64,000 nt of DNA from Kofleriaceae bacterium (GTDB lineage Bacteria > Myxococcota_A > Polyangia > Haliangiales > Haliangiaceae). The notes beneath the pieces are model-generated. The model had not been told where the DNA came from and did not search any database. It saw only the letters and a program-made list of their open reading frames with translations. Of the stretch, positions 19,018-44,992 are shown piece by piece. A program made the position numbers and the translations under genes. Position 1 is the first letter of the stretch. Each line of letters begins with the position of its first letter. The DNA lies in assembly GCA_035715365.1 (NCBI GenBank), contig DASTLB010000022.1:144242-208241 (forward strand), written 5' to 3'.

Positions 19018-21129
19018 TCAGTGATGAGCAGGCGGCGGGGGCGGCTCGCCCGGCGCCTCGCGCGGCGGGATGAAGAACTCGAGCGGCCGCTTGACGAACC
19101 GCTTGAGCACCGCGACCGGGAGCATCCGGCGCTCGCCGCGTGGCACGTCGCGTGCGCGCAGGGCGATCACGAGCGCGAGCGCGAAGCTGACGCCGAAATT
19201 CATGAGCCCGATGATCGCGATGCCGATCGCGGCGGCCACGAACAGCCCGATCCCGATGTGATCGATGCCGACCGACGAGATCGCCAGCGTCAGCGAGCCC
19301 GTCGAGAGCGTGATGTGGCGGACGTCGAGCGGCAGGCCGAAGAACTTCGCGAACACCGGCAGCATGCCGAGCAAGAAGCCGAGCGACACCGAGCCGCCGA
19401 AGCCGGCCGCCTCGTGCTCGAGGAAGCGCGCAGCCTTCGCCATGCGTTGCTTGCCGAACCGCTTGCCCCAGCGATGATGCTCGATCGCCTCCGGGATGCG
19501 CCGGTACACGATCCAGTTCTCGAACCAGCCCGCGAACAAGCTGGACAGCCACAGCAGCACGCCGGTGAGCGCGGCGAAGAAGATCGTGCCCGAGCCGAGC
19601 GGATCGAACGATTGCACGGTCTTCATCGCGCCGTGCTCGTCGAGGAACGGATGGCCGACGACGCGCTGGTACAAGAAGTCGAACGCGAGCGCGGTCACGA
19701 TCACCGCGGACACGTTGCCGAGCGCGGCAGCGAACTGCGAGCGCGCGATGCGGGCGATCAGCGACACGAGCTCGTCCATGCGGTGCGGCCCGGACTTCTC
19801 GCGGATCGTGCCGGCGAGCGACGCCGCGGTCATCGACGGCTGCTTCGTCGCGAGCGTGAACCCGACGAGCTGCATGACGACGAAGCTCGCGGCGTAGTCG
19901 ATCGACGACAGCAGGCCATCGAGGAACGGCGCGAACTCGCCCCACTTGACGAGGAACTTGCCGATCGCGGTACCGCACGTCAGCACGCCGCCGCCGGCCG
20001 CCGACAGATACATCTTCCAGTACTCGCGCCGCGACGACGTCACGTAGTGCTCGCCGGTGCGGCCGGCGCGCTCGATCACCTTGCGCGCGAGCAGGCGCAG
20101 GTTGTCGTTGAGCAGCTGCTTGAAGCTGCGCCCACCGACGAGGCCGCGGCCGACCGACGCGATCAGCGCGCGGACCTCGTACGTCGGCTCGAGGGTGTCG
20201 GTGCCGTCGACGAATGGCAGCAAGATCTCGATCCGCGACAAACCCTGCTCGATCGAGTCGAGCGCGTACACGACGTCGATCGACACGCCGGTCTCTTCGA
20301 GCGCGACCTTGACGTGCTCGAGGTGCTTGCGGCACGCCTCGATCAGCGCCGGCATCTCCTGCGGGCGTGCGCGTGTCAGGTGATAGAGCGGCGAGTCGCG
20401 GATCGTCGTGCCGAGACCGCGGGTGCGAAACGCCTCGCTCATCCCGGCAGCCGCGATCCGCGTCGAGATCAGGCTGATCGCGTCGAGGATCGACGTGCGC
20501 AGCGGCTCCCACGAGTCACCGCCGGCGACCGCGAGCCGGTGCAGCAGCGGATCGGCGGCCGGGCCGAGCCACTCGAGATCGTCGAGCTTGCGCACGATCT
20601 GGTTCGCGAGGCGCCACAGCTCGTGCTGCGCAGGTGGCTCGGGCAGGAACTTGCGCGCGAGCCGGTCGGTGGTCTCGGCGAGCAGGCCGCGATCGTTCGG
20701 CAGGCCGATCTCGCCGAACAGCCGGATGCCGCGCGTCTGCGTCAGCACCGCATGCAGCGTGCCCTGGAACCGGCGGCGCGCCTGCGGGATGCGCTCGAGC
20801 GCGACGACGAGCATCTCGAGGCGCGACAGCGCCGGGTGCTGCGGCGAGCCGGGCACGCTCGGGCCCGCGATGATGAAGCGGCCGAGCTGCTCGATCGCGA
20901 GCAGCTGCTCGGGCAGCGGCGCGTCGGGCTTGCACTTCGCGAGCAAGATCCGCAGCAGCGGGCTCGCCTTCGCGTCGACGGCACCGATGATGCGGAGGAA
21001 TTCTTCACGAGGCGGAACCTCGTCGTTGCTCGCGCCCACGCGGTACGGGTCTTCGGTCAAAGCCTCGGGATGCGCCACCGCCAAAAATGCTAACACCGCC
21101 TCGATCGAGGCCGGGCGCATCCGGACCAA
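19018..21129 (-). CDS. large membrane protein (PF10136 putative-site-specific-recombinase-like family?)
   Basis: 703 aa; soluble N-terminal half plus multiple C-terminal TM helices; family assignment is from memory and uncertain. Confidence 0.4.
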   Translation of the reverse strand: MVRMRPASIEAVLAFLAVAHPEALTEDPYRVGASNDEVPPREEFLRIIGAVDAKASPLLRILLAKCKPDAPLPEQLLAIEQLGRFIIAGPSVPGSPQHPALSRLEMLVVALERIPQARRRFQGTLHAVLTQTRGIRLFGEIGLPNDRGLLAETTDRLARKFLPEPPAQHELWRLANQIVRKLDDLEWLGPAADPLLHRLAVAGGDSWEPLRTSILDAISLISTRIAAAGMSEAFRTRGLGTTIRDSPLYHLTRARPQEMPALIEACRKHLEHVKVALEETGVSIDVVYALDSIEQGLSRIEILLPFVDGTDTLEPTYEVRALIASVGRGLVGGRSFKQLLNDNLRLLARKVIERAGRTGEHYVTSSRREYWKMYLSAAGGGVLTCGTAIGKFLVKWGEFAPFLDGLLSSIDYAASFVVMQLVGFTLATKQPSMTAASLAGTIREKSGPHRMDELVSLIARIARSQFAAALGNVSAVIVTALAFDFLYQRVVGHPFLDEHGAMKTVQSFDPLGSGTIFFAALTGVLLWLSSLFAGWFENWIVYRRIPEAIEHHRWGKRFGKQRMAKAARFLEHEAAGFGGSVSLGFLLGMLPVFAKFFGLPLDVRHITLSTGSLTLAISSVGIDHIGIGLFVAAAIGIAIIGLMNFGVSFALALVIALRARDVPRGERRMLPVAVLKRFVKRPLEFFIPPREAPGEPPPPPAHH

Positions 21130-23463: not shown

Positions 23464-26400
23464 TCAAGGCCTCTCCCGGGCGACCCACTGGGCCCAGTTC
23501 TCGACGTCCTCGGGCAACCGCGTACCGACGACGATCACCGCACGCGGATCGGTGAGCGACAGTAGATCCGGCGGCAACCGCGACAGCCGCAACGTGCGGC
23601 CATACGCGTCGGTCACCGGCTGGCCGCGCGACTTGCACGCCGCGATCGCCTTGCTCCACAGGCTCGCCATCGTCACCGGGCGCATCTTCTCGCCGGCGGG
23701 AGCCTTCGCTTCCCACACCCGGGCCTGCGCGTGAAGCTCGGCGAGCACGACGTAGAAGTGATCGGTCAGATCCTCGACCGGATCGAACGCACTGCGCGCC
23801 GACGTGCTGACCACGGCATCGAGCTCCGGCGGCTTCGGGATCGCGGTCACGCGCAGCACGGTCGCCGCCGCCGCGTTCGCGCCGCGGATCCGGCCGAGCG
23901 CGAGCGCCTGACCGTCGAGCGCGCCGAACGCCGGCGCGCTGGTCTCGACCTGCGGCCGGACGCGGCCCATCGCGTCCGGTCCCGGCAGCGGGACGAGCTG
24001 ACCGAGGCTGTCGTCGACGCCGAACAGCCCGACCGCTGCCTTGCCGCCTTGCTTGCCGACGCGCGTCTGGATCACGAGCTCGGCGCGCTGGCCGGGCGCG
24101 TACTGCGGCTGCTTCGGCTGGACCGTGACCTCGAGCTCGGCCTTCGGCTGCACGTAGACGAGCGCGCGCACGCCGCCGCCGGTGACCTCGCACCAGCCCT
24201 CGACGTTCGCGGCGAGCGGCAGCACCGCCTTGCGCTCGGCGTCGAGGTCGACCTTCTTCTCGTACGCGAGACAGTGCACCTCGAGCTGCTTTGGCAATTG
24301 CCCGGTGAACTCCGGGCCGCGGATCAGCTGCGCGGTGATCGACTCGCCGGGCTTCGCGATCACCGGCGTGACGCGCAGCCGCAGGTTCGGGACCTCGCCC
24401 GGCGTGATCCGCAGCTTCGTCGATGCCGGCTTGCCGTCGATCGTCGTCTCGACGTCGAGCTCGTAGCCGAGCATCGTCGTCGGCTGCGGCTTCTGCTGCG
24501 CGAGCCGCGCCGGCAGCTCGAGCGAGAACCGCACGAAGCCGAGCGCGTCCGCCGTGGCCTTGTCCGCGAGCTCGACGCGGCCGCCGAGCCGCGACTGCAC
24601 GCACGCCATCGCCGACGCCGCCGGCCGCTCCGCCTTCGGATCGTTCGCCCAGCCGGCGAGCTCGACGACCTTGTCGCCGGCGCGCACGCGCCACGCGAGC
24701 AGCTGCGGCAGATCGCCGTCGATCGTCGGCAGGCAGTCGCGGGCGCCCCGCGCGCGCTCCGCGATCTCGGCCGCGAAGCCCGGGGGCACGTCGAGCGCGC
24801 TCTCGATCGACGGCACGAGCGTCGGCAGATCCGGATCGGTGAGCTGGAACTCGATCTTGTAGAGCCGCTCGCTGCCGGCCGGCAGCCGCTTGCCGCGGAC
24901 GATGCCGACGACACAGCGATCGAGTGCGGTCGTGCCGCCGCCCGCGGTCACGATCGTGCCGCGCGCGTCGACGCGCAACCCGACCGTCGACGACGTCGCG
25001 TCGCCGACCCACTTCGCGCACGGCGCGAGCGCGGGCAGCCACCTGTCGAGCTCGACCTGATCCGCGAGCGGCGCGCCCTCGTCTCCGATCAGCTCCTCGG
25101 CCTCACCGCGGGTGACCAGCGCCGCGCGTGGCGCCGGCCGGAACGGCAGCGCCGGGATCACGATGTTGACCGGTGCGCCGGGATCGATCTGCAGGCTCGC
25201 GACGCCGTCCTCGTCGAGCTCGGCCTCGACGCCCGGATCGCCGGGCTGCCACGTGCGCTTGACCTTGATCTTCTGCTTGCCGACGACGCGGCCGTCCGGC
25301 GTCGTGACGCGCACGAACAGCCGGTTGTTGAAGCTCTGGACCAGCCCGTTGCCGAGCTCGGTCACCGCGGTCGCCGCGATGCCGTCCTGCGCGAGCAGCA
25401 CCTGCGCCGCGCCCGCGACGCGATCGCCCGCCGGATCGATCGCCGAGATCCGCGCGGTCAGCGTGACGCTGCCCTGCAGATCGTCGGGCACCTTCGGCAG
25501 CGCGAGCTCGAACCGCCCGTTCGCGCCGGTGACCGCCTGCTTCGGCAGCAGCCGGTCCTGCCACTCGGTCGGCGGCGGCCATGCGCCCGCGACCTCCCAC
25601 TGGATCTCGAGGTTCGCGCGCGCGACCGGCGCGCCCGAGCTGTACACGACGCTGCCCTGGATCGCCGGCGCGTCGCCGGGACGATAGAACGCACGCCCCG
25701 CGGTCGCCTCGACGCGAAACCGCGGCAGCGTGAATGGCTCGACGGTGAACGCGACCTCGTCGACCGCATCCGCCGATACCCAGGCGACGTGCCACGTCCC
25801 GGTCGCCGCGCCCTTGTCGAGCGGGAACGAGCCCGCGACCACGCCCCAGTCGCCGGCCGGCGCCTTCTCCTCGAGCAGCACCTCGCCCGACGGATCCTTG
25901 ATCGTCCACATCCCCGGCCGACCATCGATCGGCGCGAGGTCGCGCGCGCGCAGCACGACGGCGCGAAACTTCACGACGTTGCCGGGCTCGTAGAGCGGGC
26001 GGTCGGTGATCACGTGGATCCGCGCCGGCGTGTACAGCGGCAGCGGCGCGTCGAGCTCGCCCTTGCCGAGCCGGGTCTCGTACGCGACGTGCAGCTTGTA
26101 GTCACCGTCGGGGACGTCGGGCAGCTTCAGCGTACCGCGCTGCTGATCGCCGGAGCGCTCCCAGTCGATCGCGAGCGGCGTCGCCTTCTGCTTCGCGTCG
26201 ACGAGCGTCGTCGTGATCGACGAGAACCGCGGCACCGGCGCGGTTCGATCGAGGTCCGCCTCGTCGGTCGTGTAGTGCGCGATCGCGCCGAGATACACGT
26301 AGCCCTCGGCGCCGCGCCGCAGCCCCGCGAGCTGGAGCTCGGCGGTCTGGCGGACGTCGCCGTCGGGACACTCCGGGATCGCGATCCCGTACTTCTCGAA

Positions 26401-26484
26401 CGCGTGGCGACAGATGTTCGACGGGATCAGGATCCCGATCAGAAAGAACGCCGCCGCGAGCGAGATCCACGCTTCACGCTTCAT
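23464..26484 (-). CDS. alpha-2-macroglobulin family protein, N-terminal MG-domain half
   Basis: N-terminal signal anchor; MG-domain signatures ITDRPLYEPGNVVKFRAVV and FTVEPFTLPRFRV; stop is 2 nt before the next gene's ATG. Confidence 0.7.
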   Translation of the reverse strand: MKREAWISLAAAFFLIGILIPSNICRHAFEKYGIAIPECPDGDVRQTAELQLAGLRRGAEGYVYLGAIAHYTTDEADLDRTAPVPRFSSITTTLVDAKQKATPLAIDWERSGDQQRGTLKLPDVPDGDYKLHVAYETRLGKGELDAPLPLYTPARIHVITDRPLYEPGNVVKFRAVVLRARDLAPIDGRPGMWTIKDPSGEVLLEEKAPAGDWGVVAGSFPLDKGAATGTWHVAWVSADAVDEVAFTVEPFTLPRFRVEATAGRAFYRPGDAPAIQGSVVYSSGAPVARANLEIQWEVAGAWPPPTEWQDRLLPKQAVTGANGRFELALPKVPDDLQGSVTLTARISAIDPAGDRVAGAAQVLLAQDGIAATAVTELGNGLVQSFNNRLFVRVTTPDGRVVGKQKIKVKRTWQPGDPGVEAELDEDGVASLQIDPGAPVNIVIPALPFRPAPRAALVTRGEAEELIGDEGAPLADQVELDRWLPALAPCAKWVGDATSSTVGLRVDARGTIVTAGGGTTALDRCVVGIVRGKRLPAGSERLYKIEFQLTDPDLPTLVPSIESALDVPPGFAAEIAERARGARDCLPTIDGDLPQLLAWRVRAGDKVVELAGWANDPKAERPAASAMACVQSRLGGRVELADKATADALGFVRFSLELPARLAQQKPQPTTMLGYELDVETTIDGKPASTKLRITPGEVPNLRLRVTPVIAKPGESITAQLIRGPEFTGQLPKQLEVHCLAYEKKVDLDAERKAVLPLAANVEGWCEVTGGGVRALVYVQPKAELEVTVQPKQPQYAPGQRAELVIQTRVGKQGGKAAVGLFGVDDSLGQLVPLPGPDAMGRVRPQVETSAPAFGALDGQALALGRIRGANAAAATVLRVTAIPKPPELDAVVSTSARSAFDPVEDLTDHFYVVLAELHAQARVWEAKAPAGEKMRPVTMASLWSKAIAACKSRGQPVTDAYGRTLRLSRLPPDLLSLTDPRAVIVVGTRLPEDVENWAQWVARERP

Positions 26485-29627: not shown

Positions 29628-30452
29628 TTAGGGATACAGGCTCGACGCGCCGGTCTTGTCGAGGTTCGTCAGCACGAGGTCACCCTTCTGGGTGCCGTTG
29701 CACTGCGGGTAGTGCATCACCGACGACGAATCGTACGCCGTCAGCGCGCGCCAGCTGTTGTCCTCGAAGCACGTGCCCGACTCCGGCCGCGTGTGCTCGT
29801 GGCGGAAGCCGATCGTGTGGCCGAGCTCGTGACGCAGCACGCCGGTCAGCGTCCACGGGCTGATGTTGCCGAACGACGACGTCGAGACGAGGACCTCGCG
29901 GCTGCGCCGGCTCGAGCTCGGGAAGAACGCGCGCGCGAGGTACTGCGTCGTGCCGACCTCGCGAACGTCGAACACGACGTTGCTGTTGCGCGCGTTGCAG
30001 TTGTTGTCCTGCGACGCGTCGTGGATGAAGTTGACGCGCGCGGTCGCTTCCCACGCGCCGGTCGCCGAGTCCATCGCCGAGACGACCGCGCTGTAGCGGC
30101 TGCCGAAGCTCTTCGCGTCGACGCAGTACGTGAGGTTCTGCGCCTGGCTCGCCGACCACTTGTCATCCTGGTTGTTGACGCGGTTGACGATCAGGCCCTG
30201 CTCGATCGTCGTCACCCCCTCGGCACGATCCTGCGCGTCGGCGACCGACTGTAGATAGGAGTCGTAAAGCGAATGCATGGCATCTTCGCTGTCGACGAGC
30301 TCGTCACCGTTCAGGATGTAGTTGCCGGTATCGGCCTCCTGATACGCCTGCGCCTTGAACTCGTCGTAGGTCAGGACGCCGTCGTCCGAACCGCAGCCAG
30401 CCACGAACCCAAGAGCGAGGATGAAACCCGTCGAGAACCGCTTTGCGCTCAC
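29628..30452 (-). CDS. astacin-like (M12A) zinc metalloprotease lipoprotein
   Basis: Lipobox LGFVAGC; HELGHTIGFRHEHTRPE (HExxHxxGxxHE) plus Met-turn SVMHY. Confidence 0.7.
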   Translation of the reverse strand: MSAKRFSTGFILALGFVAGCGSDDGVLTYDEFKAQAYQEADTGNYILNGDELVDSEDAMHSLYDSYLQSVADAQDRAEGVTTIEQGLIVNRVNNQDDKWSASQAQNLTYCVDAKSFGSRYSAVVSAMDSATGAWEATARVNFIHDASQDNNCNARNSNVVFDVREVGTTQYLARAFFPSSSRRSREVLVSTSSFGNISPWTLTGVLRHELGHTIGFRHEHTRPESGTCFEDNSWRALTAYDSSSVMHYPQCNGTQKGDLVLTNLDKTGASSLYP

Positions 30453-30806
30453 TGAAACCTCCAGGTGACTACGTAGGAAGGGGTGTGGAACGCGGCGTAC
30501 GTTAGCGGCGGCTCATGTGTAGGCTTCAAGGGTGTTGGGGTACGAGTGACTCCTACTCAAATCTCTCGTCTTGGCGCGTCAAGCTGGTGCGATCTTTCGA
30601 GAACGACACCACCCGACACGCGCTGACACCCGAAACTTTTTTCGTGCGCTGCCGCACGTTCTGTAGGTGTCGTGATCTGAAGCAGGGTTGCTTCGTCTCG
30701 GATCGCCGGCTGCGCCAGATCGCAACAGCGCTTCGCAACGCGGTGCCGATCTCCGCGCATCTCCGTAGAGCACGCCGTGGAGTGCCGCGTGCAGAAGAGA
30801 GGGTGG

Positions 30807-33212
30807 ATGGACGATCGCAACAGCAAGCGCGACCTCGTGCTCGCGCCGAGCGAGTACGCGTACATGCAGGACGTCACGAAGGGGATCGTGAAGACGTACA
30901 CCGGCCCGACGGTGATCAACCCGACCGCACAGGAGCGGCCGGTCGTGTTCGATCCGCGGTCGAAGCAATTCTCCGCGTGCACGCTCGAGCAAGCGGTGCA
31001 GCAGATCGCGATCGCCCCCGAGGGCTACTACGTGATCCTGAAGAATCCGTCGCAGAAGAACGATCATCCGCCTTCGGGCGGCGTGTATCCGAGTCCGGAT
31101 CTCGAGATCGGACGCAAGATCAACATCACCGGTCCGTGCGCGTTCGCGCTGTGGCCCGGTCAGATGGTCAAGCTCGTCCAGGGTCATCACCTGCGCTCGA
31201 ACCAGTACCTGCTCGTCCGCGTCTACAACGAGGACGAGGCGCGCCGAAACTGGGGACAGGCGGTGATCAAGCCGGCGATCACCGACGGTCCGGCGCAGCC
31301 GATCAGCGTTCCGTCGGAGCTCACCGTCGGCAAGCTGCTCGTGATCCGCGGCACCGACGTCTCGTTCTACATCCCGCCGACCGGGCTCGGCGTCGTGCCC
31401 GAGGCGAGCGGTTCGTACGTGCGCGACGCGCTGACGCTCGAGCGCCTCGAGTACTGCATCCTCGTCGACGAGAACGGCAAGAAGCGCTACGAGCGCGGCC
31501 CGCAGGTCGTGTTCCCCGAGCCGACCGAGACGTTCATCACCCGCGACGGCCAGCGCAAGTTCCGTGCGATCGAGCTGTCCGAGATCCAGGGCCTGCACAT
31601 CAAGGTGATCGCGCCGTACACCGAGGACGGCCGCAACTATCGCGAGGGCGACGAGCTGTTCATCACCGGCGCGCAGACCGCGATCTACTTCCCGCGCGAG
31701 GAGCACTCGATCATCCGCTACGACGGGCGCGAGAAGCACTTCGCGGTCGCGGTGCCCGCGGGCGAGGCGCGCTACGTCATGCAGCGCAAGACCGGCGAGA
31801 TCCGCATGGTGCGCGGGCCGGCGATGCTGCTCCCCGATCCGGTGCAGGACGTGATCGTCCGCCGCGTGCTCACCGATCGCGAGTGCCTGACGTGGTACCC
31901 CGGCAACGCCGCGGTGCTCGCGTACAACCGCCAGCTGCGCCAGCTCGACGAGGGCGCGCCGGAGCCCGAGACCGCGAAGCCGGCACGCGCCGCGCGCCCG
32001 CAGCCCGCGCCCGACGAGCGGTTCGCGAAGCCGCGCACGCTCGTGTTCAACACGCGCTACGAGGGCGTGCCGTCGATCGCGGTGTGGGTCGGCTACGCGG
32101 TGCTCGTCGTCGACAAGCGCGGCAACCGGCGCGTCGAGCAGGGCCCGCAGAACCTGCTGCTCGCGTACGACGAGACGCTCGAGGTGCTGCAGCTGTCGAC
32201 CGGCACGCCGAAGACCGACGACACGCTGATCGAGACCGTGTTCCTGCGCGTGCTGAACAACAAGGTCAGCGATGCGTGCATCGTCGAGACCGCCGACCAC
32301 GCGCGGATCACGGTGCGCTACTCGCTGCGGGTCAGCTTCGACGGCGAGCCGGCGCGGTGGTTCGAGGTCGAGAACTACGTCAAGTTCCTGTGCGACCACG
32401 TGCGCTCGGTGCTGAAGGGCAGCGTCAAGAAGCACTCGATCGAGGCGTTCCACGCGCGCTCGGTCGAGATCATCCGCGACACGCTGCTCGGCACGCCGGA
32501 TCCCGCGACGTCGAAGCGGCCGGGGATGCGGTTCGCCGAGAACGGGATGCACGTGACCGATGTCGAGGTGCTCGACGTGACGATCGATGACGAGGCGATC
32601 GCATCGCTGCTCGCCGAGGCGCAGCACGAGGCGGTCGAGTCGAACATCACCGTGCTGCGGGCGCGGCGCGGGCTCGAGCTGACCGAGCAGCGCGAGTCGA
32701 TCGCGCGTGCCGAGGCCGCGGCGCGTGCTGCGACCGCGCACGAGCTCGCCGAGCTCGAGGTCGCCGCGACCGCGGACCGGCTACGCGTCGCGCTCGCGGC
32801 CGTCCGCGCCGAGCTCGAGCAGGCCGAGGCGCAGCGCGCCGCCACGGTCGCGCGCAACGCGATCGCGGACACCGAGCACGCCGCGTCGCTCGCCCGCCAG
32901 CGCGCCGCCGCGACGCTCGATACCGAGACCCGCGCCGCGCACCAGGCGCTCGTGCTGCAGGCACTGCAGGCCGAGGTCGAGGCTGCGGTCGCGCGGTTCG
33001 GCGCCGCGCAGGGCGGCTTCAGCGAGGCGCTGCTCGCGCTGTCGAACCAGGAGACGCTCGCGAAGATCGCCGAGGCGATGTCGGTGCAGTCGTTCGTCGG
33101 TGGCAAGACGTTGACCGACGTGATCGACAAGGTGTTCGCCGGCACGCCGCTCGCCGGGCTACTCGATCGCGTGAAGACGCGCGCGACGAACGGCCACGCG
33201 CTGACGCCGTGA
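30807..33212 (+). CDS. Major Vault Protein (MVP) homologue
   Basis: N-terminus aligns to eukaryotic MVP repeat 1; conserved ETADHAR motif; repeated about 55-aa MVP-repeat pattern; shoulder-like domain; Ala/Glu/Leu-rich cap-helix C-terminus. Confidence 0.7.
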   Translation: MDDRNSKRDLVLAPSEYAYMQDVTKGIVKTYTGPTVINPTAQERPVVFDPRSKQFSACTLEQAVQQIAIAPEGYYVILKNPSQKNDHPPSGGVYPSPDLEIGRKINITGPCAFALWPGQMVKLVQGHHLRSNQYLLVRVYNEDEARRNWGQAVIKPAITDGPAQPISVPSELTVGKLLVIRGTDVSFYIPPTGLGVVPEASGSYVRDALTLERLEYCILVDENGKKRYERGPQVVFPEPTETFITRDGQRKFRAIELSEIQGLHIKVIAPYTEDGRNYREGDELFITGAQTAIYFPREEHSIIRYDGREKHFAVAVPAGEARYVMQRKTGEIRMVRGPAMLLPDPVQDVIVRRVLTDRECLTWYPGNAAVLAYNRQLRQLDEGAPEPETAKPARAARPQPAPDERFAKPRTLVFNTRYEGVPSIAVWVGYAVLVVDKRGNRRVEQGPQNLLLAYDETLEVLQLSTGTPKTDDTLIETVFLRVLNNKVSDACIVETADHARITVRYSLRVSFDGEPARWFEVENYVKFLCDHVRSVLKGSVKKHSIEAFHARSVEIIRDTLLGTPDPATSKRPGMRFAENGMHVTDVEVLDVTIDDEAIASLLAEAQHEAVESNITVLRARRGLELTEQRESIARAEAAARAATAHELAELEVAATADRLRVALAAVRAELEQAEAQRAATVARNAIADTEHAASLARQRAAATLDTETRAAHQALVLQALQAEVEAAVARFGAAQGGFSEALLALSNQETLAKIAEAMSVQSFVGGKTLTDVIDKVFAGTPLAGLLDRVKTRATNGHALTP

Positions 33213-33215
33213 CGA

Positions 33216-35060
33216 TCAGCGACCGACGAGCTTCGCGATGCTGTCGCGCACGATCGGGTGATACAGCGGCTTCGCGCGCTCGAACGTCTTCTTCGCGAGC
33301 GTTCGCCACGGCTCGCCCTTGTCGACCATCGCCTCGTAGAGCGGCGTGATCATGCGGCGGCGGCCGACGTGTGCGAGGTAGCGCTCGACCGTCGGCGCCG
33401 CATCCCGCGCATCGGCGCGCACGAGCAGTGGTAGCCAGTACATCGCGATCTCGGCGTTCGGCGACGCGGTCAGGTGGTGGCGCTCGTCGAGCGTGCGCAG
33501 CCGCGCCGGCGCGATGTCGGCCGGCAGCGAGCGCAGGAAGATCACCCACTCGAGCGTCTGCCAGCCGTCGGTCGAGAACGTGCTGGCGTTCTTCGCGAAG
33601 TCGGTCGCGATCGCCTCGAGCTCGGCGACGCGGCGCGACGTCGTGGCCGGCGTCGATGGCGGCAGGCCGGGCTCGTGGATCCACGCGGCGAGCGCGCGCT
33701 CGGACCACTTGCCCGGGAGCCGCGCCATCAGATCGCTGCGCAGATCGGTCTCGAACGCAGCGGTGTCGGTCGACTGGAACGCGCGGCGATCGAACCGCCG
33801 GCGCAAGAACGCGTCGAACGCGGTGCGGCCGAACGCCTGCTCGAGCGTGCGCAGCAGCAGCGCGCCCTTCTCGTACGCGGCATCGCTCGGGACATCGTCC
33901 GGATCGCGGTCGGCGGTGAGCTCGAGCGCGAGCCGGGTATCGCGATCGGCTCCGGACTTCGCGAACGCCTGCTCGAGATCCTTGCGCCCGAGGTACCACA
34001 GGATGTCGGCGGCCTCGCGGCCACGCAGCGCCTCCATGATCCGGCGCTCGACGTACGTCGTGAAGCCTTCGTTGAGCCAGAAGTCGCTCCACGTCGAGTT
34101 CGTGACGAGGTTGCCCGACCACGAGTGCGCGAGCTCGTGCGCGATCAGCGACACCAGCGTGCGATCGCCGGTGATCACGGTCGGCGTCAGGAACGTCAGC
34201 CGCGGGTTCTCCATCCCGCCGTACGGAAAGCTCGGCGGCAGCACGAGCAGGTCGTAGCGGTCCCAGCGATACGGGCCGTACAGCTGCTCGGCGGTCTTCA
34301 TCATCGCCTCGACCTCGACGAACTCGTTCGCCGCCGCGTCGAGCATCGCCGGCTCGGCGTAGACGCCGGTGCGCGGACCGAGCGCGCGAAACCCGAGCTC
34401 GCCGACCGCGAGCGCCATCAGGTACGACGGGATCGGCTGCGCCATGTGAAACCGCCAGACGTGATCCGCCGGCGGGCTCTGCGGGTTCGTCGCGGACATC
34501 ACCGCCCACAGGCCGTCGGGGATGTGGATCGTCGCGTCGTAGGTGAACCGCACGCCGGGCGTGTCCTGCAGCGGGATCCAGCTGCGCGCGCGGATCGCCT
34601 GCGACTGCGTGAACAGCATCGGGTGCTTCTTGCCGACCGTGCCGGCCGGCTCGACCCACAGCAGCGCGCTCGCATCCGGCCCGGTGCGGTACGCGATCTC
34701 GACGCACGCCGTCGCCGGTGCGAGCGCGATCGACAGCGCCTGACCGAGCACCGGCTTCTTCGGCGCGTGCTGGAACACGAGCGCCGCGTGGGTGGCGCAG
34801 TCGCGGACGCTCGCGATCGCGAGGCCGTCGACGTCGAGCACGAGGTTCGCGCTGCGATCGTGACGCGCGAGCGCGAGCTGGGCGGTCCCGTGCAGCACGC
34901 GCTGGTCGAAGTCGACGGTCAGATCGAGCCCGACGTGACGGACCGAGACCCGCGAGGGCTCGGAGAACGAGTGCGGGTCGCGCTTGATCGGCTCGGGCGC
35001 CGGGTGCTTGCTGCCGCGACACGCGACGAGCACGAAGACCAGCAGCACGGCGCGGCGCAT
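33216..35060 (-). CDS. M1-family aminopeptidase (LTA4 hydrolase-like) lipoprotein
   Basis: GGMENP (GAMEN) motif; HELAHSW...WLNEGFTTY (HExxH-X18-E); lipobox LVAC. Confidence 0.8.
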   Translation of the reverse strand: MRRAVLLVFVLVACRGSKHPAPEPIKRDPHSFSEPSRVSVRHVGLDLTVDFDQRVLHGTAQLALARHDRSANLVLDVDGLAIASVRDCATHAALVFQHAPKKPVLGQALSIALAPATACVEIAYRTGPDASALLWVEPAGTVGKKHPMLFTQSQAIRARSWIPLQDTPGVRFTYDATIHIPDGLWAVMSATNPQSPPADHVWRFHMAQPIPSYLMALAVGELGFRALGPRTGVYAEPAMLDAAANEFVEVEAMMKTAEQLYGPYRWDRYDLLVLPPSFPYGGMENPRLTFLTPTVITGDRTLVSLIAHELAHSWSGNLVTNSTWSDFWLNEGFTTYVERRIMEALRGREAADILWYLGRKDLEQAFAKSGADRDTRLALELTADRDPDDVPSDAAYEKGALLLRTLEQAFGRTAFDAFLRRRFDRRAFQSTDTAAFETDLRSDLMARLPGKWSERALAAWIHEPGLPPSTPATTSRRVAELEAIATDFAKNASTFSTDGWQTLEWVIFLRSLPADIAPARLRTLDERHHLTASPNAEIAMYWLPLLVRADARDAAPTVERYLAHVGRRRMITPLYEAMVDKGEPWRTLAKKTFERAKPLYHPIVRDSIAKLVGR

Positions 35061-35139
35061 GAGCCCGGAGGGTAGCGCGATCTTCGGCGCGTCCGGCCGC
35101 TTGTCACCCGCCGCGTTCCGTGGAACGAACGTCACAACG

Positions 35140-35397
35140 ATGAGCGATCACCCCACGGACTTCGTCGGATCGGTCGAAGACGCGATCTCGTCCTCGGTCA
35201 AAGCCAAGATCCCGGACGCGGTGGTCCAGGTCTCGGGTGGCGGCGGCCACTATCGGATCGATGTGGTCTCCACCGCATTTGCGGGCAAGAGCATGCTGGA
35301 GAATCAGCGGCTCGTGCTGTCCGCGATCAAGCACCTGATCAACGGCGAACGGCCTCCGGTCCACGCCGTCGATTCGTTGACGACGCGGACGCCCTGA
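35140..35397 (+). CDS. bolA: BolA family protein
   Basis: VSGGGGHYRIDVVSTAFAGKSMLENQRLV. Confidence 0.7.
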   Translation: MSDHPTDFVGSVEDAISSSVKAKIPDAVVQVSGGGGHYRIDVVSTAFAGKSMLENQRLVLSAIKHLINGERPPVHAVDSLTTRTP

Positions 35398-35420
35398 GGC
35401 CGCGCGCGACGGGCAACCGA

Positions 35421-35473
35421 CGGTGATCGCGGGTGATCGATCGAGAGACCCGATCGATCGCCGACGATCACCG
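35421..35473. terminator. imperfect GC-rich hairpin between convergent genes (possible bidirectional terminator)
   Basis: Arms cggtgatcgcgggtgatcgatcg / cgatcgatcgccgacgatcaccg, 7-nt loop; no U-tract. Confidence 0.3.
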
Positions 35474-35484
35474 ACGGGTGACGA

Positions 35485-35763
35485 CTAATCCTTGTCGCCG
35501 TCGGAGTCGCCTTCACCCGCTGCGGGCGAAGCGCCTCCCTTGCCTTCGTTCTTGATGGCGGTCACCTCGTTGCGGATCATCTGCGCGAACGCCTTGAGCT
35601 CCTGCATGGCGTTGCGGACGCGCGTACCCGCGGCCTTGTTACCGCCGTTGTAGAATTTCTCGAAGTCGGCCGCCATGCCCGCGACGAGAGCCTGGAGCTC
35701 GGCAAAACGGGCCACCTGGGCACGCGTTGCAGGCGAGGTCTCGGATTCGTTCTGGTCGGTCAT
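35485..35763 (-). CDS. small basic protein, possibly histone H1-like nucleoid-associated protein
   Basis: Start MTDQNESE preceded by GGAG at -12; helical KAAGTRVRNAMQELKAFAQMIRNEV segment resembling bacterial H1-like N-domains; Gly/Asp/Lys tail. Confidence 0.4.
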   Translation of the reverse strand: MTDQNESETSPATRAQVARFAELQALVAGMAADFEKFYNGGNKAAGTRVRNAMQELKAFAQMIRNEVTAIKNEGKGGASPAAGEGDSDGDKD

Positions 35764-35891
35764 TTGGTTGGTCTCCATGGGAGGCGAAACATGCCCCACG
35801 ACTCTGACATCTGCACGCGGTGCATGCTTAACATCGAGACATAACGAAGATCGACATTCCGGACACATGCTTGCGATAAGTTCCGCAATCC

Positions 35892-37842
35892 ATGTCGTCT
35901 GGGACCGAGCCGCCCGCACCGCAAGCTCGTGATGATCGCCGGTTACGACTGCAGGTCGATCCCGCCGACGCGGCCTCGATCGATCCGGAAGAAACCTGGC
36001 TCCGCGAGGTCTATCAACCCAACGAGGCGAACCTCACGGTGCGCGCCGTGCTCGCGGGGATCGGGATCGGCGCGGTCATGTGCCTGTCGAACCTCTACGT
36101 CTTCTTCAAGACCGGGTGGAGCCTTGGCGTCACGCTGACCGCGTGCATCCTCGCGTTCGCGCTGTTCCGCGGGCTGCAAGGCGTCGGCCTCGTCAAGCGC
36201 CCGCTCGGCGCGCTCGAGAACAACGCACTGACGACCGTCGCATCGGGCGCCGGGTACATGACCGCGGGCGGCAACATGGCAGCGTACGGCGCGCTGCTGA
36301 TGGTGCTGACGCCACCGCTCTTGATCCCCGAGCTGTGGGACGGCCTGGAGTCGACGTTCCTGCTGTCGCGCGGCGCCAAGCCGTCGCCCGCGATCTGGCA
36401 GATGATGATGTGGTTCGCCGTGATCGCGGCGATGGGCGTGTTCGTCGCGATCCCGATCAAGCGTCAGCTGATCAACAAGGAGGGCCTCGCGTTCCCGACC
36501 GGCACCGCGACCGCAGCCACGATCCGCTCGCTGCACGACGCCGGGGGCGAAGGCGGCGGCGGCAAGCTCGCGGCGCTCGGCATCGGGTTCGCCGTGGGCG
36601 GCCTGATCAAGGCACTCGTCAGCATCTTCAAGCTGCTGCCGGATCACGTCGCGCTGCCGCTCCACATCGGCGGCTACCAGCTGATGAGCTGGTCGATCTA
36701 TCTCAAGACCGAGGTCGTGCTGATCGGTGCCGGCGCGCTGATGAGCTTTCGCACCGGCTGGTCGCTGCTGCTCGGCGGGCTGCTGACGTACGGCGTGCTC
36801 GCGCCGTGGCTGCACGCGAACGGCTACATCCCGGAGATCTTCGCCGACAAGGACAGCTACAAGCTGATCGTCCAGTGGACGCTGTGGCCGGGCGCCGCGA
36901 TCCTCGTCAGCGCGGGCCTCGTGTCGTTCGCGCTCGACTACAAGGCACTCGCGCTCGTTCTCCGGGCTGACGCGCGTGTTCGGCAAGCGCGCGCCCGTCG
37001 CCGAGCACGGCATCGCCGCGGTCGAGGCACCGGGCTGGTGGTTCCCGGCCGGGTTTCTCGTGCTCGCGCCGATCGTCATCGTCTTCATGGCGTGGTTGTT
37101 CTCGATCCCGGCGTGGGCCGGCGTCATCGCGGTCGTGCTCGCGGTCCTGATGGGCTTTGTCGCGTCGCGCGTCACCGGCGAGACCGACATCACGCCGACG
37201 AAGGCGCTCGGCCCGGTCACCCAGATGACGTTCGGCGTGATGACGCCCGGCAACCTGACCGGCAACATCATGTCGGCGAACGTCACCGGCGGCATCGGCC
37301 TGCACGCCGCGGATCTGCTGACGACGCTGAAGACCGGCTGGCTGCTCGGCGCGAAGCCGCGGCACCAGCTCTACGCGCAGCTGTTCGGCGTGATCGCGGG
37401 CGCGGTGTTCATCGTGCCGGCGTTCCGGATCCTGATCCCCGATCCGGCCGTGCTCGGTGACACCGAGTGGCCGGCGCCGTCGTGCCTCGTCTGGGAGGGC
37501 GTGTCGCGCGCGTTCGCGAACGGCCTCGGCTCGCTCGACGACTCGGTCAAGGTCGCGATGGCGATCGGCGTCGTGCTCGGCTCGGTGCTCGCGGTCGTCG
37601 AGAAGTACGCGCCGAAGCGGATCAAGCCGTACGTGCCCTCGGCGAACGGCCTCGGCATCGCGATGGTCGTGCCGGCGGCGAACTGCGTCGCGATGTTCCT
37701 CGGCGCGCTCGTCGCCGAGCTGCTGCGCCGCCGCAAGCAGGACGGCCTCGTCATCCCGGTCGCGTCGGGCCTGATCGCCGGCGAGAGCATCCTCGGGATC
37801 GTGTACGCGCTGCTCGTGGTCGGCGGCGTGATCGCGAAGTAG
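35892..37842 (+). pseudogene. OPT-family oligopeptide transporter, apparently frameshifted (or sequencing-error indel)
   Basis: N-terminal about 355 aa in frame 0 (35892 to about 36965); C-terminal about 288 aa in frame +1 (36976..37842); both TM-rich OPT-like; no stop between them in the second frame. Confidence 0.6.
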
Positions 37843-42293: not shown

Positions 42294-44543
42294 TTAGAAG
42301 CTGCCGATCAGCGTCACACCCGAGTAGCTCGTGTAGCCGCGGATCATGACGTAGTAGTCACCCGACTGCGTGTTGCTCGTCGTGCACGTCTCGTTGTTGC
42401 CGTTGAGGTACGGGCGGCAGCTGTACGTGCTCGTCGTCGGCCGCGAGCCGAACCGCGTGTAGAGGTCGGCGTCGCCCGAGCCGCCGCTGATCTTGATCGT
42501 CAGCGTCTTGCCGGCCGGCGTCGCGATGCGGAAGTACTTGTTCGAGCCCGACGAGCCCGACAGGTTCGACACCGGCACGCCGTTCGTCAGGTACGGATCG
42601 CCGCCGCTCGTCGCCGAGTACGTGCCGGTCAGCGACACGCCCGAGTACGACGTGTAGCCGCGCAGCATGACGTAGTACGTCCCGGCCTGCGGCGGCGTGA
42701 ACGTGCACGTCTCGGAGTTGCCGTTGAGGTACGGCCGGCACTGGTACGAGGTCGTCGTCGGCTTCGTACCAAACTGGACGTACATGTCCGCGTCGCCGGT
42801 GCCGCCGCTGATCGTGAACGTCAGCTGCGTCTGACCCGACGGCACCTGCAGCGACCAGAACTGCTCGCTGCCCGTCGCGCCGCTGATGCCGGTCACCGGC
42901 ACGCCGTTCGACAGCACGCCATCACCCGGCGGCGGCGGCGGCGGCGAGCCACCGCACGTCGTCGGCGCCGTGCCGACGTTGACCGCCGCGAACGCGCAGC
43001 CGACCGCGTCCTTCGTCGCCTGATCGTAGCCGAGCGCGGTCGCCGCCTGCTCCATCGCCGTGCGGAGGTTCGCGTACTTCGCCGTCGAGGTCAGGATGTC
43101 GACCTGCGCCTTGTAGACGATGCGGATCGCCTTATCCATCCCGATCGCCGGCACGTTGACGCTCGACTTGCCGCGCGGATGCGTGCCGCCCTTGCTGAGC
43201 AGACAGAACATCAGGTTGCCGATGCCCGAGCTGTAGTGAACGTCGACGTTGCCGGCCGACGTCGACCAGAAGTCGAGCGACACGCCGTCCTGCGCGGGAT
43301 CGCACATGTAGCGGAGTGCCGGCGGCAGGACCTCGTCGCCGATCAGCCACACGTCGCTCGCCGTCGACAGGTTGCCGTTCTTGCCGCCGTCGGTCCACGC
43401 CTCGATGAACGCGCCGAAGATGTCCGAGAACGACTCGTTGATACCGCCCGGCTCGCCGCTGTAGACGAGGCCGGACTCGCGCTCGGTCACCGCGTGCGTC
43501 ATCTCGTGCGCCGTGACGTCGAGCGACTGCGCGAGGTTGCCGCAGCCCTGCGCGGAGTTGCCGTCGCCGTACACCATCTGCGTCCCGTTCCAGAACGCGT
43601 TGCAGTAGTTCGTCGAGTAGTGGACGGTGTTGATCAGCGTCGCGCCCGCGTTGTCGTACGAGTCGCGGTTGAAGAACGCGAGGTAGCCGTCGTACGTGTT
43701 GCCCGCGTTGTCGTACGACAGGTTGACCGTCGTGTCGGTGCTCGCGGCCTGGCCCTCGCTGCGCTTCAGCGTGCCGGGCAGCGACGTGCCGTTGTTCGCG
43801 CTGTAGATCTGGCGGTTCTTCGCGAAGTGGATCTGCGGGTAGTCCGCGACGATCGCGCCGCTGTCGACATCGACGTAGACCTTGTCGCGCGCCGGGTTGG
43901 CGCCGCGATAGCCCTCGACCGTCGCCTCGTACGCCTTGAACGTGCCCTCGTCGGTCTGGATGTAGACGAGGCGCGACGACGTCGTCGTCATGTTCGCGAA
44001 CCGCGCGTCCGCGCTGATCCGCGACATCGCCGCGGCCTGCGTCATCGCGTTTGCGCCGAGCGTCGGCGAGATGTCACCGCGCGCGGTGCCGTTGACACCG
44101 ACGACCGCGCCCTTGACGTCGACGTGGACCACGAGGTCCGAGCCGATCACCGGCAGGCCGTTGAACTGCTGGGTGTAGCGGAAGTGACGGCCGCCTTCCT
44201 CGTCGACCGTCATGCGGCGCAGCTGCAGATCGTCGTTCGTCAGGCGCATCACCGCGAGCACCGGCGGCAGCATCGGCCGCAGTGCCTGGTCGGCGGCGGC
44301 CGGATCGTCGGTCTGCATCGCGCCGACCTTCGTCATCTCGCCGACGACATATCGAGGCATGCCGTCCGGCGCGTACTCGAGGACGGTCGCCTCCGGGAGC
44401 GCGGCGAGCGCGTCCGCGACGTCCTGCATGTTGGCGGGATCGTCCTTGGGAGCTCCGACATCGGGCTGGTTGCAGCCCAGCAGAGATCCCGAGAGCGAGC
44501 CGGCAAGAACGAGAAATTTCGCGGGTACTGATCGGCGACGCAT
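42294..44543 (-). CDS. M4 (thermolysin-like) metalloprotease with two C-terminal PPC domains
   Basis: Lipobox LLGC; VTAHEMTHAV (HExxH); GGINESFSDIFG; duplicated PPC-like modules (GDADMYV / GDADLYT). Confidence 0.8.
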   Translation of the reverse strand: MRRRSVPAKFLVLAGSLSGSLLGCNQPDVGAPKDDPANMQDVADALAALPEATVLEYAPDGMPRYVVGEMTKVGAMQTDDPAAADQALRPMLPPVLAVMRLTNDDLQLRRMTVDEEGGRHFRYTQQFNGLPVIGSDLVVHVDVKGAVVGVNGTARGDISPTLGANAMTQAAAMSRISADARFANMTTTSSRLVYIQTDEGTFKAYEATVEGYRGANPARDKVYVDVDSGAIVADYPQIHFAKNRQIYSANNGTSLPGTLKRSEGQAASTDTTVNLSYDNAGNTYDGYLAFFNRDSYDNAGATLINTVHYSTNYCNAFWNGTQMVYGDGNSAQGCGNLAQSLDVTAHEMTHAVTERESGLVYSGEPGGINESFSDIFGAFIEAWTDGGKNGNLSTASDVWLIGDEVLPPALRYMCDPAQDGVSLDFWSTSAGNVDVHYSSGIGNLMFCLLSKGGTHPRGKSSVNVPAIGMDKAIRIVYKAQVDILTSTAKYANLRTAMEQAATALGYDQATKDAVGCAFAAVNVGTAPTTCGGSPPPPPPGDGVLSNGVPVTGISGATGSEQFWSLQVPSGQTQLTFTISGGTGDADMYVQFGTKPTTTSYQCRPYLNGNSETCTFTPPQAGTYYVMLRGYTSYSGVSLTGTYSATSGGDPYLTNGVPVSNLSGSSGSNKYFRIATPAGKTLTIKISGGSGDADLYTRFGSRPTTSTYSCRPYLNGNNETCTTSNTQSGDYYVMIRGYTSYSGVTLIGSF

Positions 44544-44992
44544 GGTGCCGTCGCGCTCTTCATTCGCGGTGCCACACGCGTTGCACAACCTGCGCACGCG
44601 CAGTTCGCAGGCTGTCAGTAATCGCGATTCAGTACGATCCGCGAACGCTTGGCTGCACTCCGTCGAGCACGCTCGTAAGCGGCGCCACGTTCGAGGTCGG
44701 TCGGTGTGGCGCGCACGGAGGTGGAGGTAGGACTCCGCCGGACGTTCGCGAGCCACTCATACGCTTCGTACCGGACAGCAGGTGTCATCTCGCGCGGCGC
44801 GTGAGAACTGCGGTATCTGCAATTTGATTGCATGTCGCTGAGACAGCACGTCACGCTGTCCCATGCTCCCGCGTACTTCTGACACTGCGGTCGAGTCGTC
44901 GTCGGGAATAGCCGCGCCTACACGCGCGCAGATCGCAGCTGACTTCGAGTCAACGCGGCGCGGCAGCGGACGTGCGGCCGCGCACGCGGCGG

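Follow-up and report, generated by a model that had tools for sequence, protein, structure and literature searches.

The window, by which we mean the whole 64,000-nucleotide stretch of DNA analysed here, derives from an uncultured Kofleriaceae MAG and carries the gene for a true Major Vault Protein (MVP) family member, one that belongs to a large, deeply diverged bacterial branch. With moderate confidence, we regard the encoded product as a stand-alone, probably self-assembling vault-like cage protein of this branch whose expression is under dedicated transcriptional control.

The gene encodes a true MVP-family protein

The host is a soil myxobacterium with a ~70% GC genome, and the gene carries the NCBI label 'hypothetical protein VFQ53_08495'.

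30807..33212, + strand: MVP-family gene, 801 aa plus stop

The reading frame is open from a GTG at 30777 to a stop codon that ends at 33212. The likely start is the ATG at 30807, which has GAGAGGG 5' of it and yields the 801 aa assigned in the first-pass annotation. Third-position GC is 0.95, which in a genome of this composition marks the reading frame as a real gene. The protein divides into the following parts.

30807..32255, + strand: beta-rich region of about 7-8 vault-repeat-like modules (aa 1-483)
32256..32591, + strand: shoulder of SPFH/band-7 fold, including ETADHAR (aa 484-595)
32286-32306, + strand: ETADHAR motif (aa 494-500)
32592..32999, + strand: cap-helix equivalent, a single unbroken Ala/Glu/Arg/Leu-rich helix, from DSSP, MVP alignment and composition (aa 596-731)
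33000..33209, + strand: C-terminal helical region, conserved, the likely cap-ring equivalent (aa 732-801)

Pfam profiles matched MVP_shoulder (PF11978) at aa 484-594 (E 1.6e-26; 93 bits vs a cut-off of 25) and, over its cut-off, Vault_3 at aa 438-480 (E 1.3e-8), while a further Vault repeat match at aa 257-297 was sub-threshold (E 0.007). MVP_shoulder and Vault_3 were both matched in 34/34 diverse members of the family. Using phmmer, the protein aligned to rabbit, human and rat MVP across aa 210-763 with E-values of 2.6e-14 to 1.6e-13, and a profile of the family matched rat MVP at E 1.3e-27. In Foldseek searches with the predicted structure, full-length MVP was the top match, >20 orders of magnitude ahead in E-value. 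The global TM-score to MVP was low (0.28), since the elongated chain cannot be superposed as a rigid body.

The final structure model was built from a 102-sequence alignment obtained by profile search; it replaced an earlier model based on 41 close homologues (69-80% identity), which had a pLDDT of 52.6 and an uninterpretable repeat region. The shoulder is modelled at pLDDT >90. As had been proposed for the helical tail, the model contains one long helix (DSSP H596-731; pLDDT 62-89 in 10-residue blocks), and this helix aligns to the MVP cap helix. Further helices are modelled at aa 749-794, with the last 70 residues at low model confidence; four positions of this C-terminal region (A741, M758, G765 and G766) are invariant among the 102 sequences, and the region aligns to human MVP 790-829. 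Within the repeat region, aa 210-260, 300-315 and 384-419 are weakly modelled (pLDDT below 50-60). Because internal repeat signals detected with hhalign are weak (E 0.001-0.02), the repeat count is approximate.

The first-pass annotation had the protein aligning to MVP from its N-terminus at repeat 1. At the level of sequence this did not hold, as the phmmer alignment begins at aa 210 and a profile of aa 1-215, searched against all PDB sequences, failed to retrieve any MVP chain at thresholds as permissive as E<=10. The N-terminal half is linked to the MVP repeats by predicted fold only. The core of the call was borne out: HMM search returned significant shoulder and Vault_3 matches, the ETADHAR motif aligned to the identical motif of human and rabbit MVP, and structure prediction placed the parts in MVP order, with an N-terminal beta-repeat array, a mid-chain shoulder, and a long cap helix followed by a cap-ring segment.

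Eukaryotic MVP (rat, human and rabbit; PDB 4V60, 4HL8, 9BW5 and 9Z4W) is the top match by both sequence and fold and shares this order of parts, from beta repeats to the cap-ring-like segment. The two differ in that eukaryotic MVP possesses nine repeats in 519 aa, compared to about 7-8 modules in 483 aa here, and a cap helix of ~155 rather than 136 residues; identity is 16-20%, and the first ~210 residues of the Kofleriaceae protein are unrecognisable by sequence. Its last two modules correspond to rat R8 and R9 (Vault_3), the first of the two bearing a disordered loop at aa 384-419. The loop lies in equal alignment register with residues ~417-456 of human MVP, in the penultimate repeat, the position at which rat R8 presumably bears a disordered loop as well.

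Bacterial relatives are common and argue against a eukaryotic source

MVP homologues had been described as rare in bacteria. Contrary to this, 5454 proteins among the candidates scored reached E<=1e-5, and at least 637 clusters at 50% identity, distributed over many bacterial phyla, reached E<=1e-30. Many of these homologues already carry the JGI annotation 'major vault protein'. Cultured Nannocystis species hold relatives at 48-53% identity, and three huge-phage records contain MVP copies that are 44-45% identical; a search for plasmid-borne homologues returned none. In-silico descriptions of bacterial homologues date from 2013 and 2019 (PMC3762200; bioRxiv 10.1101/872010), with occurrence in Myxococcales and other phyla (also PMC12962969) and with Corallococcus, Plesiocystis, Enhygromyxa, Microscilla, Saprospira, Flexibacter and Herpetosiphon among the reported hosts (Daly et al. 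2013, PMC3762200; Sokolskyi 2019, bioRxiv 10.1101/872010). Bacterial relatives of MVP are therefore common and already described. The Kofleriaceae protein belongs to the same chemotrophic-bacterial branch as the described proteins, shares their band-7-like shoulder, and differs by its uncultured MAG source; Myxococcota hosts are among the earliest reported, and all of these proteins are known in silico only. Our search of literature full text likewise turned up in-silico work on bacterial MVP and no characterised bacterial vault particle, in agreement with the first-pass annotation.

Prokaryotic and viral MVP folds with variable repeat number, as seen here, are also represented by Asgard archaeal proteins (PMC12962969) and phage proteins (bioRxiv 10.1101/2023.11.10.566534). 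Asgard homologues with five repeats have been reported, some of which group with eukaryotes (PMC12962969); the Kofleriaceae protein, by comparison, sits in the bacterial branch.

A recent horizontal acquisition, in which the gene would be a eukaryotic vault gene residing in a bacterium, could account for the exact ETADHAR motif common to mammalian MVP, and such transfer has been proposed for cyanobacterial MVPs (PMC3762200). We consider this very improbable. In contrast to its 16-20% identity to solved eukaryotic MVPs, the protein reaches 40-80% identity with bacterial clusters that number in the hundreds and span many phyla, and its third-position GC is host-like. The motif reads ETSDHV in the clade consensus and ETxDL in the wider family, so the exact match is partly coincidental. 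Finally, published trees (bioRxiv 10.1101/872010) separate the proteins of Myxococcales and Cytophagales from the clade that unites eukaryotes and cyanobacteria.

The MVP gene stands alone

Two metalloprotease genes adjoin the MVP gene, placed as the first-pass annotation had placed them.

29628..30452, - strand: astacin-like metzincin lipoprotein, 274 aa, divergent (translation motifs; Pfam M10, M57, Astacin)
33216..35060, - strand: M1/leukotriene-A4-hydrolase-like aminopeptidase, convergent (Pfam)

The metzincin displays an FVAGC lipobox together with HELGHTIGFRHEH and SVMHY. The M1 peptidase, separated from the MVP gene by 3 nt (33213-33215), matches Peptidase_M1 (E 8.8e-44) and Leuk-A4-hydro_C, scores 472 bits against TIGR02411 (under its cut-off), and carries the lipoprotein-type signal MRRAVLLVFVLVAC.

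We considered whether the MVP-like protein and both metalloproteases form a functional unit, in which a cage would store the proteases, regulate them or deliver them, in the manner of HflK/C with FtsH. The genes do adjoin, across a 354-nt divergent spacer and the 3-nt convergent gap, and protease-regulating SPFH cages are known, HflK/C-FtsH being itself among the fold matches. Missing synteny largely refutes the idea: the metzincin was present in 0/80 related loci and the M1 peptidase in 1/80, where it was non-adjacent, 2.4 kb away. Moreover, both proteases carry lipoprotein-type export signals and the MVP-like protein does not; the three genes, lying on opposing strands, are transcribed as separate units; and secreted proteases are frequent in the genome, e.g. 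an M4 thermolysin-like gene at 42294-44756. We accordingly give such a unit almost no credence, and flanking secreted metalloproteases do not survive as a theme of the locus.

More generally, tblastn with ten window neighbours and all-vs-all ORF clustering across the 80 loci found no conserved neighbour and no cluster common to most loci, the single recurrent neighbour cluster being a generic Ser/Thr kinase domain. Synteny of a kinase with a GST-like gene was seen in ~10 loci and was limited to a clade. The eukaryotic vault ribonucleoprotein contains vault RNA, PARP4/vPARP and TEP1, none of which was found near the Kofleriaceae gene: Rfam at the gathering threshold gave 0 matches in the 64 kb window, and PARP, TROVE, NACHT and vWA domains were absent from the 34 window ORFs scanned, as anticipated for vPARP and TEP1. 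A PADLOC search for defence systems matched neither the MVP gene nor either protease. The MVP gene is a stand-alone gene, and its protease neighbours are a local accident.

A conserved module lies upstream of MVP genes in one myxobacterial clade

The spacer upstream of the MVP gene (30453-30806) has a GC content of 0.602 vs 0.698 for the window, placing it in the lowest 0.6% of 354-nt windows; the low GC noted at first pass is thus real. It contains the following features.

30643..30658, strand not applicable: palindrome CGTGCG-CTGC-CGCACG, outside the conserved module
30689..30727, strand not applicable: two degenerate TGCTCC-N5-GGAGCA dyads with 3 mismatches each, at -118 and -96 from the ATG
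30778..30793, + strand: 16-nt element TGGAGTGCCGCGTGCA, starting 29 nt before the ATG, with sigma-54-like GG-N10-GC geometry

The palindrome singled out in the first-pass annotation exists, but we rejected it as a regulatory site: inverted repeats of its kind occur at chance level (2 in the spacer, compared to an average of 1.08 in shuffles and a window-wide rate of 3.5 per 354 nt), and it is not conserved in the alignment of relatives.

The dyad TGCTCC-N5-GGAGCA, found in 29/73 upstream sequences, occurs at 2.96 per kb upstream of MVP genes vs 0.041 per kb in the background, a 72-fold enrichment, and all 29 tandem dyad pairs in 1.14 Mb sit upstream of MVP genes. In the Kofleriaceae/Haliangiales clade the module comprises 2-3 tandem dyads at about -140 to -75, together with a 16-nt element that ends ~14 nt 5' of the ATG. 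The element, TGG-N9-TG(C/A)A, starts at -36 to -27 in 18/73 sequences, where 0.0009 are expected per locus, and 17/17 non-window loci that have it also have dyads. Within the window alone the pattern is not significant (5 matches vs 3.0 expected). The degenerate dyads of the window, whose positions agree with those of a related locus (L020; -117 and -95), are a putative regulator-binding module. Dyad position 14 alternates between A and C with no change from T at its partner, position 4; because this variation is uncompensated, an RNA hairpin was rejected, and the pattern of substitutions fits recognition of DNA by a protein rather than an RNA stem. The accessible text of PMC3762200 and bioRxiv 10.1101/872010 makes no mention of the module (dyads plus 16-nt element).

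By hand count, TGGAGTGCCGCGTGCA agrees with 8/12 positions of the sigma-54 consensus TGGCAC-N5-TTGCW and keeps the GG-N10-GC spacing; a sigma-54 reading of it is weak. Alternatively, rather than an enhancer with a sigma-54 promoter, the upstream elements may make up an operator, bound by a repressor or an activator, that serves an ordinary promoter of sigma-70 or ECF type; to this we assign only slightly less than an even chance. Half of the elements (9/18) lack the sigma-54 '-12' GC, having GA in its place (TGAA for TGCA), and the centre of the element is palindromic (ACGCGT or TCGCGA), as in operators. A sigma-54 start site would lie 2-5 nt before the ATG, giving a leader of 2-5 nt, with a conserved GGAGG-like ribosome-binding sequence in between; since this sequence lies downstream of the element, it implies that the transcript starts further upstream. 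Other clades, in addition, use a TATGCT-type -10 box. Against an operator, the TGG-N9-TG spacing is strict in 18/18 elements and GG-N10-GC fits half of them, the tandem dyads, 45-110 nt upstream, look like enhancer sites, and no consensus sigma-70 promoter was found in the spacer; no intrinsic terminator was found around the gene either. A search near MVP genes for an enhancer-binding-protein gene detected GAFTGA in 3/80 loci only, and nowhere in the window.

A proposed vault-like cage

Solved proteins that combine an SPFH domain with a long helix (MVP, HflK/C, prohibitin, flotillin, stomatin and erlin) assemble side by side. By analogy with these relatives, subunits of the MVP-like protein would probably do the same, closing into a ring with the helices bundled as a cap and so forming a dome, or a barrel of two halves, that is soluble in the cytoplasm. 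A rim or waist contact may be provided by the N-terminus, which is strongly conserved (DLVLAPxEYA..D.TKG).

The protein might instead be an ordinary SPFH/band-7 scaffold that, like stomatin or flotillin, organises a membrane patch and forms no free particle. Its shoulder does have this fold, but the SPFH cages HflK/C, prohibitin, flotillin, stomatin, erlin and QmcA are membrane-anchored and have no N-terminal repeat barrel. The Kofleriaceae protein has neither a signal peptide nor a membrane segment (the top 19-residue Kyte-Doolittle mean is 1.23 across the 801 aa), and 483 soluble residues precede the SPFH domain; MVP-type repeats of such length (~480 residues) in this position are seen in no membrane SPFH protein. 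Together with the lead of full-length MVP in the Foldseek search, these features make a membrane scaffold unlikely.

A regulator that binds DNA as a dimer at the dyads would probably switch expression of the proposed cage; it may be an enhancer-binding protein that acts on a sigma-54-type promoter. Because no cargo gene is linked, our default guess for the role of the protein is general sequestration, or a function linked to stress or development. A more elaborate version, in which soluble vault-like cages operate without RNA or enzyme partners and, in Kofleriaceae/Haliangiales, are switched on by a dedicated regulator of the enhancer type, which may depend on sigma-54 and would hence be tied to stress or to the developmental programme of myxobacteria, is one that we hold to be possible but rather doubtful.

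Vault function has been a question for four decades. The Kofleriaceae locus alone adds little to it, given that a large family has already been reported. More useful are the findings that the protease neighbourhood is meaningless and that the family is far wider than 'rare', extending to huge phages. The gene-specific upstream module, carried by one myxobacterial clade, offers a concrete experimental way to identify the regulator and, through it, the conditions that would lead to a cage being made. Bacterial homologues, some of them in cultured Nannocystis, could serve as simple genetic systems for a minimal, partner-free MVP cage; they bear on the origin of the eukaryotic particle and could become protein nanocontainers. 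If true, a partner-free bacterial cage would be a candidate for the ancestral state of that particle and, combined with a dedicated regulator, would provide a genetically tractable prokaryotic model of vault function.

Identity and distribution of the window gene

The window (GC ~70%) is part of a metagenome-assembled genome assigned to Kofleriaceae (Myxococcota), and NCBI lists the 801-aa protein, at 100% identity, as 'hypothetical protein VFQ53_08495 [Kofleriaceae bacterium]', located on a 620-kb contig. [quoted passage not shown]

The MVP gene and Pfam matches of its product
30807-33212, + strand: MVP-family gene, ATG to end of stop, 801 aa; ORF opens at GTG 30777
aa 257-297: canonical Vault repeat, sub-threshold
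aa 438-480: Vault_3, E 1.3e-8, over the curated cut-off
aa 484-594: MVP_shoulder, E 1.6e-26, over the curated cut-off

The first-pass annotation had called this gene a bacterial MVP homologue, a claim that survives: HMM matches and the arrangement of repeats, shoulder and cap helix were both found, and the Pfam shoulder and Vault_3 matches, phmmer, a family profile and Foldseek all agree. When searched against all PDB sequences, phmmer returned MVP chains only (rabbit, human and rat; E 2.6e-14 to 1.6e-13), with an alignment spanning aa 210-763, and the 102-sequence family profile improved the MVP match to E 1.3e-27. The ETADHAR motif pointed out earlier is present at 494-500, within this alignment, but that it matches exactly is in part a coincidence, as the clade has the consensus ETSDHV at this position and the wider family ETxDL. 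The window gene is a true MVP-family member.

The accompanying statement that such homologues are rare in bacteria proved wrong, as thousands of matching proteins occur in many phyla. Among 8000 candidates scored, 5454 proteins matched at E<=1e-5, and a library clustered at 50% identity held 1271 representatives at E<=1e-3 and 637 at E<=1e-30, mostly full length. Source labels include Bacteroidia, Eremiobacterota, Ozemobacteraceae, Desulfobacterales, Anaerolineae, Firmicutes and others, and many homologues are already named 'major vault protein' in JGI annotation. When species-representative genomes were scanned once with patterns of close relatives, 99 loci emerged, with Nannocystis exedens, N. 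punicea and others as cultured hosts. Daly et al. (2013; PMC3762200) describe MVP-fold proteins in Corallococcus, Plesiocystis, Microscilla, Saprospira, Flexibacter and Herpetosiphon, while the analysis of Sokolskyi (2019; 10.1101/872010) covers homologues from Myxococcales, Cytophagales and Oscillatoriales and places chemotrophic bacterial MVPs in a clade apart from eukaryotes plus cyanobacteria. Phage and Asgard homologues have been reported since. The window gene is of a known, widespread and elsewhere already annotated kind. Full-text searches, within the reach of the library, turned up no experimental work that characterises a bacterial vault particle, as first stated. Recent transfer of the gene from a eukaryote is highly improbable, given 16-20% identity to eukaryotic MVP versus 40-80% to hundreds of bacterial clusters, and a codon composition that matches the host.

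MVP-like ORFs were also seen in three 'uncultured phage' genomes of 462-735 kb (LR756500.1, 21378-23363; LR756501.1; LR756503.1, 17644-19608), sharing 44-45% identity with aa 1-632 of the window protein; PLSDB plasmids contained none. A 61%-identical homologue in a gammaproteobacterial assembly (related locus L045:8001-10502, Candidatus Achromatium palustre contig LFCU01000241.1) differs from the myxobacterial loci in its AT-rich upstream sequence and represents either horizontal transfer or assembly contamination.

Predicted structure and repeat number

An AlphaFold model built from close homologues only had a pLDDT of 52.6, and its repeat region failed. With homologues at 43-52% identity added by profile search, a second model reached pLDDT 73.

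Features of the second AlphaFold model
aa 10-210 and 420-483: confident beta modules
shoulder: pLDDT > 90
aa 596-731: single unbroken helix
C-terminus: short helices

The best 12 Foldseek matches in the PDB were all MVP (E 1e-30 to 8e-25, 810-920 aligned columns), followed by a murine R1-R7 fragment (vault repeats 1-7; E 6e-11) and then by membrane SPFH cages at ~1e-6. Global TM-scores to MVP were low (0.28), as expected of a long, flexible multi-domain chain. We also weighed whether the protein is an ordinary membrane SPFH scaffold; this is unlikely, since it is without an anchor and places 480 residues of repeats ahead of the SPFH domain. The MVP-like protein was found to lack both a signal peptide and any hydrophobic segment; it is a soluble, stand-alone chain with its parts in MVP order.

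The protein had been said to align from its N-terminus to MVP repeat 1. Instead, the phmmer alignment begins only at aa 210, and a profile of aa 1-215 retrieved no MVP chain even at E<=10; the N-terminal tie to MVP repeats, as modeled, is structural only. At the N-terminus, residues L12, D22, T24, K25, G26 and G33 do not vary in any of the 102 sequences. In the phmmer register, aa 210-483 lie opposite human R6-R9, leaving ~210 residues for the stretch that holds five repeats in mammals, and a disordered insert (aa 384-419) faces human MVP ~417-456, a region in which rat R8 has a disordered loop. Based on this register, the strand pattern of the model and the weak internal repeats, we estimate 7-8 repeat modules, not nine.

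Genomic context

Genes flanking MVP
29628-30452, - strand: astacin-like metzincin, 274 aa, divergent, upstream of MVP
33216-35060, - strand: M1/leukotriene-A4-hydrolase-like aminopeptidase, convergent, 3-nt gap from MVP, lipoprotein-type signal

The metzincin bears the lipobox FVAGC, the astacin-type zinc motif HELGHTIGFRHEH and an SVMHY Met-turn, with weak Pfam matches to M10, M57 and Astacin. Although these protease genes and their layout had been described accurately, the context is incidental, being absent or near-absent in relatives. Ten window neighbours were compared by tblastn with 80 related loci (flanks <=8 kb per side): the metzincin had no match in the 80 loci, and the M1 peptidase had one (locus L013), 2.4 kb beyond MVP with an OPT transporter alongside. 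All-against-all clustering of flank ORFs gave no cluster common to most loci, the sole recurrent one being the Ser/Thr kinase domain, of which myxobacteria have a great many. Export signals are present on both proteases and lacking from the MVP-like protein; that the three, despite their close packing, form one functional unit is scarcely credible. PADLOC gave no defence-system match and Rfam no vault RNA, and no PARP, TROVE or NACHT domain occurs in the 34 window ORFs scanned, in agreement with the reported lack of a vPARP or TEP1 partner. The MVP gene is a stand-alone unit.

In about ten loci (including L005, L011, L012, L016, L020, L025, L055 and L058), a ~380-aa Ser/Thr kinase and a GST-like gene lie directly 3' of MVP on the same strand. 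This pair, of which the window has none, is synteny of one subclade.

Other window genes
19018-21129, - strand: PF10136 'site-specific recombinase', E 5.7e-179, 9.7 kb from MVP
23464-26484, - strand: alpha-2-macroglobulin-like protein (MG2 domain)
35892-37842, + strand: OPT oligopeptide transporter, split over two frames, break near 37002-37024
42294-44756, - strand: M4 thermolysin-like protease with PPC domains

This region has many genes for exported products related to proteolysis (MG2 protein, metzincin, M1, M4), which fit a predatory/proteolytic lifestyle rather than a link to MVP. One ORF matches positions 2-330 of Pfam OPT and the other 353-623, the L013 orthologue being single-frame; the split is either a MAG assembly frameshift or a pseudogene. 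The only other locus with a PF10136 homologue (L021:1540-3393, 49% identical) has it immediately upstream of MVP.

A conserved upstream module

The 354-nt spacer upstream of MVP does have low GC (0.602 versus 0.698; lowest 0.6% of equal-size windows), as first observed, which is nothing unusual where promoters diverge; GC is 0.624 in the large spacer that comes next (35136-35891). The palindrome singled out there, CGTGCG-CTGC-CGCACG, exists at 30643-30658, but such repeats occur at chance frequency. Inverted repeats with six-base arms and 0-10-nt loops have a window-wide rate of 3.5 per 354 nt; the spacer contains 2, and the shuffle mean is 1.08. Since it is also unconserved in relatives, we rejected it as a special site; it is incidental.

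We compared the 140-250 nt before 72 related genes and the window gene (73 sequences). The dyad TGCTCC-N5-GGAGCA (<=2 mismatches) was counted 54 times in the 18.25 kb lying upstream versus 46 times in the remaining 1.12 Mb of locus sequence (2.96 versus 0.041 per kb, ~72-fold enrichment). It was present in 29/73 sequences, usually in 2-3 copies spaced 18-24 nt with the last at ~-75 to -90, and 29/29 tandem pairs in 1.14 Mb of related sequences lay upstream of an MVP gene. A 16-nt element, TGG-N9-TG(C/A)A (in fuller form TGG[A/T]CGNG[T/A][T/A]C[T/G]TG[C/A]A), starts at -36 to -27 in 18/73 sequences, against 0.0009 expected per locus; 17/17 non-window carriers have dyads too.

The module in the window
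30689 (-118) and 30711 (-96): two 3-mismatch dyads, same positions as in locus L020 (-117, -95)
30778-30793: 16-nt element

Within the window alone the 5 matches versus 3.0 expected are not significant, the evidence for the module being comparative. It is found in loci L001-L058 and L076 at ~-140 to -14 from the MVP start (window 30689-30793). The genes upstream are not the same from locus to locus, and outside the module the spacer cannot be aligned; thus, conservation of the module, as judged by alignment, reflects selection rather than common ancestry of the loci. Dyad position 14 varies (A/C) with no compensation at position 4, which points to a putative protein-bound DNA site; an RNA stem was set aside on the same grounds.

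Loci L060-L074 (Nannocystis-type) have no dyad module and instead carry another conserved box, CTATGCT / GTATGCT, ~35-45 nt before the ATG, which resembles a -10 hexamer. Promoter type thus differs between clades of the MVP family.

Discussion

With its tandem dyads placed ahead of an element of GG-N10-GC geometry, the module is reminiscent of a sigma-54 promoter and its enhancer, a mode of regulation heavily used in myxobacterial development, and it may be one, albeit with somewhat less than even likelihood. We rate this reading no higher because GA replaces the '-12' GC in half of the 16-nt elements, transcription would have to begin only 2-5 nt ahead of the ATG with a conserved GGAGG-like sequence between, the element's centre is palindromic (ACGCGT or TCGCGA) and operator-like, and no activator gene was found near MVP.

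Lateral assembly into a closed ring, capped by the helices, is common to all solved proteins in which a long helix comes after an SPFH domain, and MVP, HflK/C, prohibitin, flotillin, stomatin and erlin are all among the fold matches. By analogy, the window protein would probably do likewise, its repeat region making the wall of a dome or two-halved barrel and its strongly conserved N-terminus being a candidate rim contact. As cargo or enzyme linkage is absent, a general sequestration or stress/development-linked compartment is the default putative role. The conserved upstream module of these MVP genes is the one new, testable lead to emerge from this follow-up.
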